From: a virus
Direction: 5' to 3' (one strand)
IMG/VR virus record: IMGVR_UViG_3300034101_003866
Coordinates: 32,001-96,000 of that record
DNA: 64,000 nt
Shown here piece after piece: positions 31,824 to 45,922 of this stretch. The position numbers and the translations under genes are program-made. The notes beneath the pieces were generated by a model. That model searched no databases. It had not been told where the DNA came from and saw nothing but the letters and a program-made list of their open reading frames with translations. Each line of letters begins with the position of its first letter. Position 1 is the first letter of the stretch.

Positions 31824-32193
31824 TTTTATTTTTAGTCCAAAACAAAAAACAGATTCGACAGATACCAACTATTATTGTATGGCTGGATCAGAAAACTATA
31901 CTGATGGAGATGGATTTCCAAGATCAGAAAAAGATGGAAAGAATGTTCTTGCTAAAAGAATATTCAAAACAAATTCTCAACCGCAATATTTTATTAAGAT
32001 ATCCAATAGCAATAAATTATTTAATCCTCTTGGAAGTGGACTAGACGAAAAGTCATATAGTATTGTTGATAATGTCTGTAGACCATCAGACAAGTTCAGA
32101 TCTGTTAATGAAAAAGTCTTTAATTTATATCTGAATTTTTTATCCACAAAGAACATATCATGGTTAACTAGAGCAGAAAGAGAGATTATATAA
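31816..32193 (+). CDS. Hypothetical protein, paralogue of 30720..31127
   Basis: Shared motifs as listed for 30720..31127; GAGG SD. Confidence 0.7.
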   Translation: MDDFIFSPKQKTDSTDTNYYCMAGSENYTDGDGFPRSEKDGKNVLAKRIFKTNSQPQYFIKISNSNKLFNPLGSGLDEKSYSIVDNVCRPSDKFRSVNEKVFNLYLNFLSTKNISWLTRAEREII

Positions 32194-38592: not shown

Positions 38593-39626
38593 TAACATAC
38601 TTTAGGAGTAGCTCCTATAATACTCATAGCATGTGCGAACAACAGTACTTTGGTGAGTACGTACTGGGCTGGAGAGGATTGTCTGGCCAAAAAGCAGATA
38701 AAGGAACTATTACTCATAAAGTTCTTGAAATTTTAGCGGTTATGAAAAAAGCCGAGCAAGATGGACAAACTACTATTGATGACGATCTTATCGGATTAGT
38801 TGATATTAATAATTATGATTTAAATAATTTAATAGAGAAAGTATATACCTATTATACTAATAATGCTCAACACCATAAATGGTCGGCCAAAGATCATAGA
38901 GACTGTAAAGACTGGGTTTATAAGGCTATAGAATTTAATGGCGGGATGTTTGATCCAAGGAAAAGAAATATTCTTTGTCCAGAACAACACTTTGATTTTG
39001 AAATTAAAAAACCCTGGGCTAAATACTCTTATGATATTGGCGGCGAAAAACTTGAGGGTAATCTAGCACTAAAGGGTACTATTGACTTAATAACACTGGT
39101 TAATGATTCTACAATAGAAGTAATAGACTGGAAAACTGGAAAAAGATTAGATTGGGCTACTGGAGAAGAAAAAACCCAAGAAAAACTAGAAAAAGATCCA
39201 CAGTTAAAGATTTATCACTATGCAATAAAACATCTTTATCCTCATATTAAGAATATAATATTTTCAATATATTTTATTAATGATGGTGGACCATTCTCCA
39301 TTTGTTTTCATGATTCTGATCTAGCATCAACAGAAGATATGTTAAGACAAAAATTTGAAGCAATTAAAAGCACTAAAAAGCCAAGGTTGCATAAAAGCTG
39401 GATGTGCAGTAAGTTGTGTCATTTTGGCAAAACAACATTTGATGGAACTCATATTCAGCCAATAGAGGAATATAGAGATGGACAAGTATGCAAATCTGGT
39501 CAAACCATGACAAAGTGCGAACAGATAAAACATGACCTTGATCTTTATGGAATTGACACTACAATTGGGTTGTACAAGAACAAAAATCACTCGTTTGGAA
39601 GTTACAAAGCCCCCGGATCAATATGA
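38586..39626 (+). CDS. Cas4/RecB-like PD-(D/E)xK exonuclease, probable ATT start
   Basis: Frame open upstream of ATG 38631 (IIITYFRSSSYNTHSMC); GT..H, GTIDL, IDWKTG, QLKIY, C-terminal C..LC..C; GAGGAG SD 8 nt before ATT 38586. Confidence 0.8.
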   Translation: MIITYFRSSSYNTHSMCEQQYFGEYVLGWRGLSGQKADKGTITHKVLEILAVMKKAEQDGQTTIDDDLIGLVDINNYDLNNLIEKVYTYYTNNAQHHKWSAKDHRDCKDWVYKAIEFNGGMFDPRKRNILCPEQHFDFEIKKPWAKYSYDIGGEKLEGNLALKGTIDLITLVNDSTIEVIDWKTGKRLDWATGEEKTQEKLEKDPQLKIYHYAIKHLYPHIKNIIFSIYFINDGGPFSICFHDSDLASTEDMLRQKFEAIKSTKKPRLHKSWMCSKLCHFGKTTFDGTHIQPIEEYRDGQVCKSGQTMTKCEQIKHDLDLYGIDTTIGLYKNKNHSFGSYKAPGSI

Positions 39627-41038
39627 CAAAAACATATTCAGTTCTTCATGCTCATTCTCACTATAGTCTTTTAGATGGAATTAGTAAGCCTAGTCAAATA
39701 GCAGAGAGATGTGTTAATGCCGGAATTAAAACCTGTGCAATAACTGATCATGGAACTATTTCCGGATGTGTTCAGTTCTATCAGGCTATGAAAGCCAAAA
39801 AAATTAAGCCAATATTAGGTTGCGAACTTTACATACCTAAAAATGATTCATTCGTTAAAGAGAAAGAGAATAATAATCTGAGTCACTTCTTAGTTCTTGC
39901 TAAAAATTTAGCCGGATGGAGGACTCTTGTAAAAATCATATCTGAAACTAATAGAATAGACAACTTCTATCATAAGCCTAGAATTAGTTTTGATAGATTG
40001 GCACCTATGCTGGACGGAAATATAATAGGATTTTGCGGACATTTAGGATCTAGCATATCCGATTTGGTTGAAGAAAATCCTGATAACTATACTGATAAGA
40101 CAATATCCTTTATAGACTATATGAAAGAAATATTTGGCAAAGATAATTTCTTTCTAGAAGCTCAACTTATGGATCAGGAACTGAATCCTAAACAAAAAGA
40201 AATGACAGATATAATGAGACAATTATCTGTTAAGACTAAAACTAAAATAATAGCCACTCCAGATGCTCACTATTGTGAAAGAAAAGATGCTATTGATCAA
40301 AGGATTTTATTATGTAATAATCTTAAGACAACTTTGATAGACATAAATAAGAAACTCTTGGCTAATGAGGACGTTCCAATGAGTTGTTTCTTCAAATCAG
40401 ATAATTATCATATTCCAGATCCAGAAGAAATGATAGAATGGCATACCAAAGAAGAAATTGAAAATACTTTATATGTTGATTCAATGTGTGAGGAATATTC
40501 TATTCTTAGTAAACCACTACTTCCTGCTTTTGAATGTCCAAATAATTCCAATCCAGAAGAATATCTGAGACAATTATGTAGAGATGGTTGGAGAGAAAAG
40601 ATAATGAATGATATTCCAGAATCTGAGCATACCAAATATGCAGACAGAGTAAAATTAGAATTAGATATTTTACAAAAAGCTGGACTATCTAGTTACTTTC
40701 TTATAGTACAAGATATTGTAAACTATGTTAAAAAGAGCGGGTGGCTTCCAGGCCCAGGAAGAGGATGTTTTGTGCCTGATACGAACGTTAAAATGCACGA
40801 CGGCACAACAAAAAAGATCTATCAAATCAATATAGGAGACATTATAATAGATGCCTATGGAAATCCCCAGGAAGTTTATGATACTTTGCAGTATGATATT
40901 AATGAAGATATTATTGAATTAATATTTGAAAATGAAAAAACTATTAGATGCACTAAAGACCATAAATTTTTAACAAAAAATAGAGGGTGGGTAGAGGCCC
41001 AACATCTATCAAATATAGATGATATTGTAGAAGTTTAA
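39623..41038 (+). CDS. dnaE: DNA polymerase III alpha part 1 (PHP domain to GPGRG, 381 aa) fused to split-intein N half
   Basis: LHAHSHYSLLDG, AITDHG, KPILGCE, LAKN..GW, KPRI, DAHY, YFLIVQD, GPGRG, then intein Cys1. Confidence 0.95.
   Translation: MTKTYSVLHAHSHYSLLDGISKPSQIAERCVNAGIKTCAITDHGTISGCVQFYQAMKAKKIKPILGCELYIPKNDSFVKEKENNNLSHFLVLAKNLAGWRTLVKIISETNRIDNFYHKPRISFDRLAPMLDGNIIGFCGHLGSSISDLVEENPDNYTDKTISFIDYMKEIFGKDNFFLEAQLMDQELNPKQKEMTDIMRQLSVKTKTKIIATPDAHYCERKDAIDQRILLCNNLKTTLIDINKKLLANEDVPMSCFFKSDNYHIPDPEEMIEWHTKEEIENTLYVDSMCEEYSILSKPLLPAFECPNNSNPEEYLRQLCRDGWREKIMNDIPESEHTKYADRVKLELDILQKAGLSSYFLIVQDIVNYVKKSGWLPGPGRGCFVPDTNVKMHDGTTKKIYQINIGDIIIDAYGNPQEVYDTLQYDINEDIIELIFENEKTIRCTKDHKFLTKNRGWVEAQHLSNIDDIVEV
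40766..41035 (+). mobile_element. Split intein N-fragment (IntN, 90 aa)
   Basis: Block A CFVPDTNV..DG..K.I..I.IGD, block B IRCTKDHKFLT, GWVEA..L...D; ends at a stop codon. Confidence 0.95.
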
Positions 41039-41061
41039 AAAGAACCCCTTCCTAGACTTTT

Positions 41062-41077
41062 GGTGTATGTTTATATA
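41062..41077 (+). promoter_or_regulatory. GGTGTA-N6-TATA putative phage promoter
   Basis: GGTGTATGTTTATATA between the IntN stop and the endonuclease ATG. Confidence 0.55.
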
Positions 41078-41087
41078 GAGAAATATT

Positions 41088-41897
41088 ATGAAAAATATAA
41101 CATTCAAATTTCTAGAAAATAATAACTTTAAATTTAAGGGATTCAGTAATACCCCCATAAAGGATCAATGCATAACATGTCAAAAAATATTTGAATATAA
41201 AAAACTTAAAAAATTTCTAAGAAATAGACTATCCTTGCCCACTTCTCAGTGGTGTCAATGTCATAAATGTTTTTTAAAATTTAGAACTATTAATAATCCA
41301 GAATGGATGGAGAGTAATCGAAAAGCACAGCTTATAGCACAAAATAAACCAGAGCAAAAAAAGAAAAATGCTCTAGGAGTGTCAAGAAGCTGGGATAATA
41401 AGAGAAAAAAGAAAGCTTCAATCTATCTAAAAAATAGATGGAAAACAGATCAAAAATTTGCCCAAAAAGCCAGATCAAATTTAAAAATTAATGATACTCA
41501 ACATATAAAAAATACATTTGGAATTGGTGGACTAAAAGGATTTTATAATGAAATATACTATGATAGCGCATTAGAGTTATCGTATTTATTATGGTGTGAA
41601 CAACTTAGTATTCCAATTAAAAGATATGATCTAGATCCAATACAATACGAAATATCAAATAAACAAAAGTTATATTTTCCAGATTTCATTATCCATGAGG
41701 ACATAGTGGTAGAGATAAAAGGTAAGGGCTTGTATTTTGCTAAAAATAAAGAACAAAATTTAGCGAAAACTGCAGAAGCCAAGAAAAAACTAAAAAATAA
41801 ATTTATAATAATATTTGATCAAGACAAAGAAGTTAAAACCTACTATAAAAAAGCCAGAAAATTACATCATGAAATTAAAAAGCAAAAAGATAATTAA
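41088..41897 (+). CDS. Free-standing putative homing endonuclease (TnsA-like PD-(D/E)xK) between the split-intein halves
   Basis: CxxC...CxCxxC, basic linker, YDSALELSY, YFPDFII, VVEIKG. Confidence 0.8.
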   Translation: MKNITFKFLENNNFKFKGFSNTPIKDQCITCQKIFEYKKLKKFLRNRLSLPTSQWCQCHKCFLKFRTINNPEWMESNRKAQLIAQNKPEQKKKNALGVSRSWDNKRKKKASIYLKNRWKTDQKFAQKARSNLKINDTQHIKNTFGIGGLKGFYNEIYYDSALELSYLLWCEQLSIPIKRYDLDPIQYEISNKQKLYFPDFIIHEDIVVEIKGKGLYFAKNKEQNLAKTAEAKKKLKNKFIIIFDQDKEVKTYYKKARKLHHEIKKQKDN

Positions 41898-41976
41898 GAA
41901 TCACACAGGAAAAGTCCACGATATCTCTGTTAAAAATTCTGCATCCTATAATGTAGAGGGGTTGGGAGTACATAAT
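41869..41976 (+). mobile_element. Split intein C-fragment (IntC, 36 aa)
   Basis: Basic N-terminus, block F VHDISV....SYNV, block G VHN followed by Ser+1. Confidence 0.95.
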
Positions 41977-42702
41977 TCTGCTGCAGGATGTTTAGTATCA
42001 TATCTTATTGGTATTACTCAAATTGATCCTATAAAATATGATTTACTGTTTGAAAGATTTTATAATGAGGGCCGTAATACTGCAGATCATATCTCCATGC
42101 CAGATATTGATGTTGACGTTCCAATTAATAAAAGAGAACAGATCATTGAATATATTAAAAATAAGTATGGTTCAGACAAGGTGTCTCAGATGATTACATT
42201 TAATACCATGAAAGGTAGAGGGGCCTTAAAGGAAGTATTAAGAGTATATGATAATATTTCTTTTGAAGAAATGAATAGAATAACAAAGTTCATTCCTGAC
42301 GAAGCAAAAATTGCTGACGAATTACAGGAAATGAAAGAAGATACGGGAGAGGCATCAATTATCAGGTGGGCACTAGAAAACAATGTTGACAAACTGAAGG
42401 AGTGGTGCTATATTAGTGATGATGGTTCTCTTTCTGGGCCTTTGGCGAAAAGGTTTGAACAAGCCATACGACTTGAAGGAACAAAATCTAATCAGTCAAA
42501 ACATGCTGCCGGTGTAGTTATTAGTAGTCAAAGTCTCAGTGCTGTTTGTCCTATGGTTTATGATTCAAAAAATAAACAAGCAATAGCAGGGATGGAGATG
42601 CAAGATTTGGAAAATCTAGGTTTGATTAAATTTGATATTCTAGGAATAGCTTATTTGGATAAAATGATGTGTGTTTCCGATTTACTAAAAAATGGTGTAT
42701 AA
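41869..42702 (+). CDS. dnaE: Split-intein C half fused to DNA polymerase III alpha part 2 (catalytic palm, 241 aa)
   Basis: MKLKSKK...VHN|SAAGCLVSYLIGIT.IDP..YDLLFERF, SMPDIDVD, SKHAAGVVI, GLIKFDILG. Confidence 0.95.
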   Translation: MKLKSKKIIKNHTGKVHDISVKNSASYNVEGLGVHNSAAGCLVSYLIGITQIDPIKYDLLFERFYNEGRNTADHISMPDIDVDVPINKREQIIEYIKNKYGSDKVSQMITFNTMKGRGALKEVLRVYDNISFEEMNRITKFIPDEAKIADELQEMKEDTGEASIIRWALENNVDKLKEWCYISDDGSLSGPLAKRFEQAIRLEGTKSNQSKHAAGVVISSQSLSAVCPMVYDSKNKQAIAGMEMQDLENLGLIKFDILGIAYLDKMMCVSDLLKNGV

Positions 42703-42709
42703 CATTATA
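42694..42709 (+). promoter_or_regulatory. GGTGTA-N6-TATA putative phage promoter overlapping the dnaE part-2 stop
   Basis: GGT GTA TAA CAT TATA; upstream of AAGGA SD and the HNH gene. Confidence 0.55.
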
Positions 42710-42735
42710 TCAATTTTTATAAAGGAAACTACTAT

Positions 42736-43419
42736 ATGAATAAAAAAGACTTAAAAAGAATGTTATATCAGGAAAATAAAACTCAAAGAGAAATTTCTAA
42801 AATTTATCTATGCTCTGAGTCTCTAATAAGCCAAAAAGTAAAGCACTATGGTTTACAAAAAGACATATCAGATGATTATATTGGAAAAAAGTTTCATTCT
42901 CTGCAACCTATTGAATACCTAGGTAAAGACAAAAATAGCCATGCTATATTTTTATGTGTTTGTGATTGCGGTCAAACAAAAACAGTATTAGGAAATTCTT
43001 TAAAGAATGGAAATAGCAAAAGCTGTGGATGCAAGTCTCGTAAAAGAGGAAAAGAACATAAACTATATTCTGGATATGAAGAAATAAGATCAGAATACTG
43101 GGGCAGGGTATTACGCGGGGCTAAAGATCGAGGAATTGATGTAAAAATTACTATTAAAGAAGCATGGGAAATTTTCTTACAACAAGACAGAAAATGTGCA
43201 TTAAGTGGTGAAATATTATATTTTCCATATACAAGAAAAACTTCTAAATATAGCACAGCATCTTTGGACAGGATAGATTCAAATGGACACTACGAAAAAG
43301 ATAATGTACAATGGATTCACAAAAAATTAAATACTATGAAGATGAATATGACAGAACATGAATTTTTAAATTGGTGTAAAAAAATAAGTATTAATAAAAA
43401 ATTATGCAAAGGAGAATAA
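42736..43419 (+). CDS. HNH-type putative homing endonuclease with N-terminal HTH and CxCDCG..SCGC domain
   Basis: TQREIS HTH, IGKKF..L, FLCVCDCG, SKSCGC, KCALSG, ASLDRIDS..HY..DNVQW...N.MK. Confidence 0.85.
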   Translation: MNKKDLKRMLYQENKTQREISKIYLCSESLISQKVKHYGLQKDISDDYIGKKFHSLQPIEYLGKDKNSHAIFLCVCDCGQTKTVLGNSLKNGNSKSCGCKSRKRGKEHKLYSGYEEIRSEYWGRVLRGAKDRGIDVKITIKEAWEIFLQQDRKCALSGEILYFPYTRKTSKYSTASLDRIDSNGHYEKDNVQWIHKKLNTMKMNMTEHEFLNWCKKISINKKLCKGE

Positions 43420-43420
43420 A

Positions 43421-43600
43421 ATGCAAAAACAATTTCATGAACTAGCGATTGGTGATAGATTCACAGTTAATGGTGTTGAATATATTAAAACTGAAGAAGT
43501 TAGAGTTAGCTGTTGCAGAAGTATCAATTGTTATGCTGCTTCTGATGCTAATCAAAAAGGACATTTTCCAGGAAATACAGAAGTTACAATAAATGGCTAA
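43421..43600 (+). CDS. Small 59-aa protein with SCC motif (not in ORF track)
   Basis: MQKQFHELAIGDRFTVNGVEYIKTEEVRVSCCRSINC...ING*; AGGAG SD; overlaps the exonuclease start. Confidence 0.7.
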   Translation: MQKQFHELAIGDRFTVNGVEYIKTEEVRVSCCRSINCYAASDANQKGHFPGNTEVTING

Positions 43601-44288
43601 TCTACAAAAAATTTGTGTCTTTGATTTGGAAACGGACGGAGTTAATCCTGATCTTTGTAGTCCAGTTCAAATTGCTGCGGTTATGGTCGATCCATTAAAA
43701 TTAGAAATAGTTAAAGATTCAGAATTTAACATTACTGTTAAGCCATCGGTTTTAGAAGAGAAACCAGAATACTCTTATTCTGATTCTGATGTTCTAGACT
43801 TTCACGCTAAAGTGAGAGGTAGTACAAAAGATCAAATTTTAGAATCATGGAAGTCATATCAAAAACAAGAACACGGATGGAATATGTTCATATCATACTT
43901 AGATATGTATCATATAAGATCCAACGGAAAGAAATCTTGTTTCACAGCACCAATAGCAGCTGGTTATAATATCAATAGATTTGATCTAAGGATAATAGAA
44001 AGATTAAGTCAAAGATATAATAATCTGAATAAAGAGGGAAGATCATCTTTATTCTATCCTAGAGACGTAATAGATATTATGAATTTAATATTTTATTGGT
44101 TTGAAGGAAATAATGAACTGAAAAACTATACACTAGACAACCTTAGAGATTATCTTGGTATAGACAAAGAAGGTGCTCACGATGCCCTCAAGGATGTTAA
44201 GGATACTGCAAATATTTTAATTAGATTCTTAAAGTTGCACAGGGGACTGTCGAATAAGATTAAGTTTAAATCATCATTTATTGGATAA
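43593..44288 (+). CDS. DEDDh 3'-5' exonuclease (DnaQ/epsilon-like)
   Basis: VFDLETDG (ExoI), AGYNINRFD (ExoII), AHDALKDV (ExoIII). Confidence 0.9.
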   Translation: MANLQKICVFDLETDGVNPDLCSPVQIAAVMVDPLKLEIVKDSEFNITVKPSVLEEKPEYSYSDSDVLDFHAKVRGSTKDQILESWKSYQKQEHGWNMFISYLDMYHIRSNGKKSCFTAPIAAGYNINRFDLRIIERLSQRYNNLNKEGRSSLFYPRDVIDIMNLIFYWFEGNNELKNYTLDNLRDYLGIDKEGAHDALKDVKDTANILIRFLKLHRGLSNKIKFKSSFIG

Positions 44289-44296
44289 ATTAATTA

Positions 44297-45922
44297 ATGG
44301 GTAAGTTTTTTACTTTTGATTGTGGTTGTAAGTTTCCGGTTATAAACGATAATGAGAATTTTCCAAGAATAGATTTTTCTCCAAAATTATCTAATATCAA
44401 CCTTAACTGTGAAAAAACATGGGATTTAATATCTCTTGGTAATACCAAGGGATGTTTTCAGCTAGAGTCCAGACTAGGCCAAACAATGGCCAGAAAACTC
44501 AAGCCCCATAATATTGAGCAGTTATCCGGGTTGATTAGTATTCTCAGGCCAGGATGTCTTGAGGCTATGAGAGATGGTAAAAGCGTATCAAACCATTATA
44601 TTGATAAAAAAAATGGATTGGCGTCTATTGACTATTTCCATACTGCTTTAGAACCTATTCTTAAAGATACATATTCTGAAATGATTTATCAAGAACAGGC
44701 GATGTCTATTGCTAAAGAATTAGCTGGATTTAATCTTAAAGAAGCAGACGATCTTAGAAAAGCAATTGGCAAAAAACAAGCAGATAAAATGGCTAAGGTT
44801 AAAGAACAATTTATTATTGGTTCTAAAAATAAGGGACTAATAAATGAAAAGGAAGCAGAACAAATTTTTGAATGGATTGAAAAAAGTCAAAGATATTTAT
44901 TTAATGCTAGTCATTCTATTAGTTATGCAATGAATGCTTATTTATCTGCGTATGCTAAGGCGCATTTTCCAAGAGTCTTTTTTGCTTCGTATCTTAGGTT
45001 TGCCAAAGATAAAATAGATCCTCAACAAGAGATTAAAGAGTTGGTTAGAAATGCTATTGAAATGGATATTGAAATAAGAATACCAGACTTTAGAAATTTG
45101 AACGAATTATTCATACTCAAGGATAAAAAGATATATTTTGGATTAACAGACATTAAAGGTGTTGGTAACTCAGTATATAAAAAGATTATTGATCTTGTTA
45201 AGAATTGTGATGTTAATGAATTATCTTGGTCACAAACCATGTCTATAGTTCTTTTAAATATAAACTCTATTGCGGCCAAAGCAATGATTAGTTGTGGGGC
45301 ATTTGACTATTTTAAAAAGAATAGATCAGAATTGTTATTTGAATATGAAATATGCAGTGGATTAACAAAGAAAGAGTTGGGGTCTTTTAAGGACTATATA
45401 TCTGTTAACTCTGATGCTGGAATATTAGATATATTAAGATATATATATGACAATACTAAGCTAATAAAAGGCAGGAAAGAGGCTATTAATAATTATATAC
45501 AATCTATGATACGTCCTCCGTATTCTTTGGTTGATAAAATAGAATGGCTATCTGATTCAGAAAATGGCCTACTTGGGGTGGGAATTACTTGTTCCAAATT
45601 AGATGTTTATGATGTAAGTTCTGCGAATTGTAATTGTAAAACTTTTAAAACGTCTTTAATTAAAGATAACATTATATTAGTTGGTGAAATTTCTAATATC
45701 AATGTTACCAAAACAAAAAATGGTAAAAACCCTGGATTAGAGATGGCATTTGTAACGATTGAGGACCAGTTTGGTACGCTAGATACTGTGGTCTTTTTTC
45801 CAGAACCATTTTCTCAATATAGATCGTATTTATTTATAGGAAGCATACTTGTATTTTCTGGTAATCGTAGCAAGTCGAAGGATGGGCTGATTGTGGAGAA
45901 GTGCTTTAATCCAGTTTCTTGA
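44297..45922 (+). CDS. dnaE: DNA polymerase III alpha part 3 (fingers, HhH, OB fold), no intein
   Basis: GNTKGCFQLES, LRPG, IYQEQ.M, LAGF...EADDLRKAIGKK, FNASHS..YA, KAHFP..F, IYFGL..IKGVG, MAFVTIED. Confidence 0.95.
   Translation: MGKFFTFDCGCKFPVINDNENFPRIDFSPKLSNINLNCEKTWDLISLGNTKGCFQLESRLGQTMARKLKPHNIEQLSGLISILRPGCLEAMRDGKSVSNHYIDKKNGLASIDYFHTALEPILKDTYSEMIYQEQAMSIAKELAGFNLKEADDLRKAIGKKQADKMAKVKEQFIIGSKNKGLINEKEAEQIFEWIEKSQRYLFNASHSISYAMNAYLSAYAKAHFPRVFFASYLRFAKDKIDPQQEIKELVRNAIEMDIEIRIPDFRNLNELFILKDKKIYFGLTDIKGVGNSVYKKIIDLVKNCDVNELSWSQTMSIVLLNINSIAAKAMISCGAFDYFKKNRSELLFEYEICSGLTKKELGSFKDYISVNSDAGILDILRYIYDNTKLIKGRKEAINNYIQSMIRPPYSLVDKIEWLSDSENGLLGVGITCSKLDVYDVSSANCNCKTFKTSLIKDNIILVGEISNINVTKTKNGKNPGLEMAFVTIEDQFGTLDTVVFFPEPFSQYRSYLFIGSILVFSGNRSKSKDGLIVEKCFNPVS

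Follow-up and report, generated by a model that had tools for sequence, protein, structure and literature searches.

The window analysed here, a stretch of 64,000 nucleotides from the IMG/VR virus record IMGVR_UViG_3300034101_003866 (positions 32,001 to 96,000), carries the gene of a DnaE-type polymerase in three pieces across 39623-45922, and the first break in this gene holds a true split intein, natural and conserved, of the compact kind seen in phages. Between the two intein halves lies a free-standing endonuclease gene. We consider it very probable that the intein in this fractured phage dnaE works as a natural split intein, splicing in trans by the class 1 route. The source contig, of 120,027 bp and 33% G+C, is a single contig of the metagenome type. 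Coordinates are those of the window unless stated otherwise, and the features are collected in Table 1.

The junction codons fix the intein to the base. At 40760-40768, AGA GGA TGT reads R-G-C and places the Cys1 codon at 40766, from where the N-terminal half (IntN) runs to 41035 and is closed by a TAA stop at 41036-41038, whereas the C-terminal half (IntC) opens with an ATG at 41869 and ends in VHN|S (41968-41979), with CAT AAT TCT at 41971-41979 encoding H-N-S(+1). Each half is fused to a part of the polymerase, the gene for part 1 plus IntN covering 39623-41038 and that for IntC plus part 2 covering 41869-42702. The halves are 0.83 kb apart, and IntN, the endonuclease open reading frame (ORF) and IntC occupy three different reading frames of one strand, with the start of IntC overlapping the 3' end of the endonuclease gene by 29 nucleotides in another frame. 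An earlier sequence-only reading of the window had proposed the span 40766-41979 and a split into 90 and 36 residues, which hold base for base, and the residues it listed are all present, namely Cys1, block B (CTKDH), the terminal His-Asn and Ser+1. While that reading rightly saw a compact phage-type split intein, it missed both the endonuclease gene that its own span encloses and the class of fractured genes (Dassa et al., 2009) to which the locus belongs.

The insertion point corresponds to position 66 of 260 in the Pfam DNA_pol3_alpha profile and lies in the palm, and removal of both halves gives GPGRG|SAAGCLVSYLIGITQIDP. Uninterrupted GPGRGS... sites are found in 62 related IMG/VR dnaE loci. 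In fact, seven of these (L018-L024) read VKKSGWLPGPGRG SAAGCLVSYLIGITQIDP, which is letter-identical to the flanks in the window after excision, so that the restored GPGRG-SAAG motif foreseen from the sequence occurs in natural empty alleles.

Searches with each half showed how widely this arrangement is shared. A query of the N-terminal protein limited to residues 375-471 retrieved 124 cluster representatives whose IntN is 47-94% identical to that of the window, save for one 37% match in a different host protein. Here, IntN ends 89-92 residues past GRG|C in 103 representatives, mostly as ...DDIVEV. Cys1 follows GRG in all 120 IntN family members, as does the block B T-x-x-H, and the fuller CTKDH is kept in 109 of the 120. 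Querying likewise with residues 1-70 of the C-terminal protein, we obtained 55 representatives in which HN|S is preceded by 35-36 residues. Invariant among these 55 members are V, D, Y, V, H and N, and all of them retain the block F Asp and VHN|S, including Ser+1. With this IntN end point shared by more than 100 representatives and this IntC start by 55 proteins, the recurrence of the boundaries is far beyond chance, and the intein belongs to a large family, of more than 100 clusters, in public metagenomic data. The natural flanks are likewise near-constant (SAA in 51 of 55, GPGRG in 85 of 120).

Both halves are under purifying selection. The ratio of nonsynonymous to synonymous substitution rates (dN/dS) is 0.04-0.3 across the two wherever dS can be estimated, synonymous sites being at or near saturation between diverged copies. 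For IntN, dN/dS is 0.08-0.26 where dS is estimable and the corresponding ratio of proportions of differing sites (pN/pS) is 0.20-0.32 in saturated pairs, while for IntC, pN/pS is 0.08-0.12 among three 36-residue copies with saturated synonymous sites. Moreover, the acidic IntN and basic IntC described earlier are apparent in the net charges, which are -8 (17 D+E versus 9 K+R) and +5, respectively.

Outside the metagenomic data, little resembles this intein. In 50,697 phage records of GenBank, our blastn and tblastn searches met with no DnaE that bears this intein, only with distant inteins in other genes, and the nearest phage DnaE matches in GenBank are below 40% identity, which leaves the window with no close cultured phage. 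An apparent coverage of IntC in Gordonia phage RedWattleHog was rejected, as its DnaE is a single intein-less protein of 1064 residues. In bacterial and archaeal genomes, only two short contigs from metagenome-assembled genomes were found. The 90-residue tail of the N-terminal protein gives Pfam matches to Intein_splicing, Hom_end_hint and Hint, all of them below threshold. The NrdJ-1 split intein (PDB ID: 8ubs) is matched by phmmer to IntN of the window alone at E 7e-7, over IntN residues 54-88, and with the family profile at E 2e-10. For IntC alone, there was no match among PDB sequences.

To place the break in a fold, we turned to three contiguous mini-inteins at the same site, which are 123, 135 and 145 residues long (L082:2927-3295, L085:4426-4830 and L086:4618-5052). 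An alignment (A1) of these three with the IntN and IntC fragments of the window and nine loci was used for an AlphaFold2 (AF2) model of the L082 intein, which reached a predicted local distance difference test (pLDDT) score of 95.4. The PDB matches of this model in Foldseek numbered 64 at E <= 0.001; the ones listed are HINT domains of the intein, BIL or Hedgehog kind, and the gp41-1 intein (PDB ID: 6qaz) leads them (template-modelling score of 0.80, 25% identity). A HINT fold is thus predicted for the family through this relative, which is about 58% identical to the window halves, and gp41-1, to which the fragment sizes had been likened earlier, also comes first in the comparison of folds. 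The break in the window falls between L082 model residues 88 and 89, in a loop before the long strand 91-108, which in the model is the canonical site for endonuclease insertion and for splitting. Because the break maps to this loop, a stop codon, an inserted gene and a start codon are all that the split form has beyond the contiguous one.

Taken together, the following course of events would account for the locus. The ancestor would have been a contiguous mini-intein of about 123 residues, and a free-standing PD-(D/E)XK endonuclease gene would have entered its canonical insertion loop, where it lodged and so split the intein. Part 1 of the polymerase (PHP to GPGRG) would now be translated as a fusion to the acidic IntN of 90 residues, and part 2 (SAAG..., with the catalytic PDIDVD) as a fusion to the basic IntC of 36 residues. 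The halves would associate into the HINT fold, and trans-splicing would proceed from the Cys1 thioester through attack by Ser+1 to cyclisation of the terminal Asn, joining Gly381 to Ser and rebuilding the G-S nucleotide-binding motif of the palm. The G-S of GRGS serves nucleotide binding in Pol III alpha and in Pol beta-like nucleotidyltransferases, as a motif that acts jointly with the PDIDxD aspartates downstream. Since the intein sits between the Gly and the Ser of this motif, each unspliced piece would hold only part of the active site, and the pieces would have to be ligated, or at the least be tightly associated, for the enzyme to work. As for the cassette, IntN, the endonuclease and IntC would home as one unit into intein-less dnaE alleles of related phages.

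Four points weigh against this reading. We infer splicing, association of the halves and endonuclease cleavage from sequences and models, as we do the splicing rate and the target and activity of the endonuclease. The fold was predicted for the contiguous relative and not for the two-chain complex of the window itself. The block F position holds Ala here as opposed to His in Npu DnaE and half of the family, and this could make Asn cyclisation slower. Lastly, the 5' hairpin that Dassa et al. (2009) described upstream of such endonucleases is not significant at this locus.

The alternative that fares best, though we hold it to be improbable, is that the halves no longer splice and persist as a non-covalent docking module for DnaE parts 1 and 2. 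Docking of this kind is reported for the fragmented NrdA of phage Aeh1 (PMC3045599). Moreover, the junction of parts 2 and 3 (42702 / 44297) is without an intein, so the enzyme already tolerates non-covalent assembly, and the window copy lacks the block F His. Yet docking has no need of Cys1, TxxH, the terminal Asn or Ser+1, all of which are invariant in 55-120 diverged representatives, and the break divides the active-site G-S motif.

Slightly less probable still is that the intein of the window is a decaying copy, slow or inactive through a His-to-Ala change in block F, with the phage relying on another polymerase. As the sequence-only reading had observed, block F (NSASYNV) is without its usual His, and a profile alignment pairs its Ala, at IntC position 25 (-12 from the C-terminus), with a His in both the Npu DnaE intein (DHNF) and a Clostridium BIL domain. 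This Ala replaces a His that is present in 25 of the 55 IntC representatives and in all three contiguous forms examined. However, the other 30 representatives carry Ala (11), Lys (8), Ser (7), Thr (3) or Arg (1) in intact and widespread loci, on contigs of up to about 150 kb, and close relatives that share the Ala (P0134-P0137, L001 and L003) retain all of their ORFs intact. As the position varies throughout the family, the absent His is, judged by these sequences, ordinary family-wide polymorphism and not a sign of decay. Finally, that the window shows an assembly or frameshift artefact of a contiguous intein with a nested endonuclease domain has next to no likelihood, for although the genome is a single metagenome-type contig, dozens of assemblies, independent of one another and of different origin, have in common the stop behind ...DDIVEV, the spacer, a start codon of the endonuclease's own and the Met of IntC, and the three ORFs occupy three different frames.

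Trans-splicing by a conserved intein remains our preferred reading, and we consider next the gene lodged within it. At E <= 0.001, a search for homologues of the endonuclease ORF gave 82 clusters. Among 26 aligned homologues, four cysteines (C28, C31, C58 and C61), the QNKPEQK region, E163, P198-D199, E209 and K211 are invariant, the last four of these forming a classical PD-(D/E)XK site. Pfam gives a weak Phage_endo_I match for the window protein (20.5 bits against a cut-off of 29.1), and the weak matches of its family are to Phage_endo_I, Tn7_TnsA-like_N and DUF7487, with the cut-off passed in two relatives, P0267 (Tn7_TnsA-like_N) and P0268 (DUF7487). No GIY-YIG or Vsr Pfam match was found on the ORF, and there is no invariant His in the nuclease domain of the 26 homologues. 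EDxHD is the composite motif that defines Vsr-like homing endonucleases (PMC3239194); the predicted protein is without it and is not of the GIY-YIG type. Against PDB sequences, the endonuclease alone had no match and its family profile found T7 endonuclease I only, at E 0.09. The AF2 model (pLDDT of 89) gave no Foldseek match below E 0.03, and structural comparison of its C-terminal domain with TnsA gave a Z score of 7.0 and a root-mean-square deviation of 3.7 with 123 residues aligned, followed by I-Bth0305I (Z of 5.6) and Vsr (Z of 5.4), values that denote a shared fold only. TnsA is thus the best large structural match, and the invariant E...PD...E-x-K is like that of the TnsA / T7 endonuclease I type, whereas the N-terminal four-Cys finger, the QNKPEQK region and the position inside a split intein are not.

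In every context examined, homologues of the endonuclease lie between the genes for DnaE-N plus IntN and DnaE-C, even the most distant ones (31-43% identity). In one locus (L089:2072-4789), a different split intein is found two residues downstream, GRGSA|C ... HN|CGS with Cys+1, together with a 31%-identical relative of the endonuclease. As this intein differs and the endonuclease family is the same, the endonuclease is apparently tied to the dnaE region and not to one intein. Upstream of the gene, a GGTGTAT-N(2-8)-TATA[TA] motif stands about 15-35 nucleotides before five start codons, those of both dnaE-associated endonuclease genes included, and may be a phage promoter element; GGTGTATG is no commoner than chance within the window.

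Comparison with related loci yields a mosaic pattern of identity. Relative to L001, IntN (98%), the endonuclease region (99%) and IntC (98%) are more alike than the N-extein (92%), the C-extein (94%) and part 3 (95%), and mismatches fall from about 9 per 100 nucleotides (39700-40599) to about 1.6 per 100 nucleotides (40800-41999), with the low-mismatch tract beginning some 150 nucleotides upstream of the junction. In turn, L019 has no intein and an N-extein 97% identical to that of the window, which is closer than L001. Given a cassette more alike than the exteins and an intein-less allele with so close an N-extein, we take the cassette to have been mobile recently, and apparently to be so still. 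In the wider family, the intein is 50-70% identical while the DnaE exteins are only 25-40% identical to those of the window. Moreover, the IntN and IntC genes are adjacent, without an endonuclease between them, in L002, L011 and L081, so the split persists after endonuclease loss. One site therefore occurs in four states: empty (as above), with a contiguous intein (L082, L085 and L086), split with an endonuclease, and split without one.

The arrangement as such has a precedent in the fractured genes with split inteins described by Dassa, London, Stoddard, Schueler-Furman and Pietrokovski in 2009 (PMC2677866). That paper gives spacers of 27-51 nucleotides, endonuclease/IntC overlaps of 6-69 bp, IntN of 88-105 residues and IntC of 33-54 residues, and it describes three fractured DnaE loci (DnaE-1, -2 and -3) at non-cyanobacterial sites as well as five complete split-intein pairs, none of them DnaE. 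The window follows the same plan, with Host-N plus IntN, a 49-nucleotide spacer, a free-standing endonuclease on the same strand, a 29-bp endonuclease/IntC overlap, and IntC plus host-C, and it also agrees in phage origin, half sizes, opposite charges of the halves and a DnaE host at a non-cyanobacterial site. In contrast, the endonucleases of Dassa et al. are GIY-YIG or Vsr-like (EDxHD), while that of the window has the classical E...PD...ExK with a zinc finger. Where they described an upstream RNA hairpin and a late-promoter box, the spacer here has a predicted hairpin with a z of -1.19, below significance, and the uncharacterised GGTGTAT..TATAT motif. Since that paper already has three DnaE loci, a split at the present site may have been met before. 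Beyond Dassa et al. (2009), our literature searches gave no further description of a fractured phage dnaE and no case of a split intein that holds a TnsA-like homing endonuclease.

Among characterised inteins, those of gp41-1 and NrdJ-1 (PDB IDs: 6qaz and 8ubs) share with the window a compact HINT fold, sizes of about 88-90 plus 36-37 residues, the canonical loop split, Cys1 and Ser+1, although the host protein and site are different and the overall sequence identity is low. Of the solved structures, gp41-1 is nearest in fold and NrdJ-1 nearest in sequence, both diverged; near-identity to a characterised intein had been named beforehand as a check, and none is near-identical. As with the cyanobacterial split DnaE intein (Ssp / Npu), the one in the window is a natural split intein in Pol III alpha with Cys1 and an IntC of about 36 residues, but the resemblance exists at the profile level only (E ~5e-6). 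Npu and Ssp DnaE inteins carry Cys+1, in contrast to Ser+1 here. The cyanobacterial intein is described as lying in the fingers, with its halves at separate loci and no endonuclease (PMC2677866; PMC4760082), and Novikova et al. map cellular intein insertion points in Pol III alpha to the fingers, where five (a-d and g) fall within 75 residues, and others to the PHP domain (PMC4760082). The intein of the window, by comparison, sits in the palm G-S motif with adjacent halves, and its site is not the cyanobacterial one, as the sequence-only reading had maintained.

Table 1. Features of the fractured dnaE locus and its surroundings (window coordinates unless stated)
Feature	Position	Strand	Evidence
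dnaE part 1, N-extein, 381 residues; PHP and start of palm, ending in GPGRG	39623..40765	+	Pfam PHP, E 1e-34; DNA_pol3_alpha profile positions 1-66; translation
IntN, 90 residues plus TAA; Cys1, block B CTKDH, end DDIVEV	40766..41038	+	NrdJ-1 intein, E 7e-7; family conservation
Spacer of 49 nucleotides from IntN stop to endonuclease start; holds GGTGTATGTTTATATAG	41039..41087	.	
Free-standing endonuclease gene, 269 residues; four-Cys zinc finger, QNKPEQK region, C-terminal PD-(D/E)XK domain (predicted)	41088..41897	+	82 homologous clusters; invariant residues; AF2 model
IntC, 36 residues, MKLKSKK...GVHN	41869..41976	+	conservation across 55 family members
dnaE part 2, C-extein, 241 residues, from Ser+1 (SAAGCLV...); remaining palm with PDIDVD	41977..42702	+	Pfam DNA_pol3_alpha positions 66-260, E 4.5e-55
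dnaE part 3; fingers, HhH, OB fold	44297-45922		
Copies of GGTGTAT-N(2-8)-TATA[TA]	18057, 18429, 41062, 42694; genome position 112596	- (genome position 112596)	

In the surroundings, the second break in dnaE (42702 / 44297, between palm and fingers) is without intein motifs and contains a DEDDh exonuclease gene (43593-44288). Its layout is shared with the complete intein-bearing loci L001-L014, and part 3 begins with a conserved ...CGC.F leader. Between part 2 and the exonuclease gene, there is an ORF for an HNH endonuclease of 227 residues at 42736-43419 (PHROG HNH endonuclease, E 3e-25), which is missing from the otherwise 92-99% identical L001, where a gap of about 715 nucleotides is found; this is a second, independent mobile endonuclease of the same polymerase locus. 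In some relatives, part 3 is itself broken, with an ORF between the pieces (L082:7047-9837 and L002:8205-10096), and the fingers piece of L082 has a faint Hint match, which suggests a second fractured site. Further inteins are seen in the polymerase of relatives at PDID|C in L085 (L085:3001-5403) and inside the PHP domain of protein P0082, and a downstream gene of 1170 residues in L086 has two Intein_splicing matches (L086:5466-8274). Directly upstream of dnaE in this same locus, on an 86-kb phage-like contig, is an IS200/IS605-type pair of a Y1 transposase and a Cas12f1-like TnpB (L086:1399-2816).

The fractured-gene arrangement and DnaE as its host are already known, having been published in 2009. 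What is new, as far as sequences tell, is a complete and diverged intein pair, an endonuclease type unreported for fractured genes and clear population evidence of ongoing homing. In protein ligation, the gp41-1 / NrdJ-1 class of compact natural split inteins provides the fastest tools known, and only a handful have been characterised. Here, we have a complete pair far diverged from those, along with dozens of natural variants, and as these include His, Ala, Ser and Lys at the debated block F position, they make a ready panel for rate and orthogonality. Value as an orthogonal trans-splicing tool is plausible, though orthogonality to NrdJ-1 should not be assumed, because block B resembles that of NrdJ-1, and extein tolerance calls for caution, as the GRG / SAA flanks hardly vary in nature.

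We give about even chances to a broader proposition. By this, the intervening gene would establish a third family of homing endonucleases among fractured genes, one that combines a zinc finger with a TnsA / endonuclease I-like PD-(D/E)XK domain and is specialised on the region around the G-S motif in phage dnaE, and the intein family would show every stage of gene breaking at one site with all of them in circulation, from the empty site through the contiguous mini-intein and the split form with endonuclease to the split form after endonuclease loss, and including the neighbouring non-allelic intein of L089 two residues downstream with the same endonuclease family. As regards the evolution of such genes, the evidence from the locus and its relatives is unusually complete, both for the splitting of a mini-intein by a free-standing endonuclease and for the subsequent homing of the split cassette as one unit.

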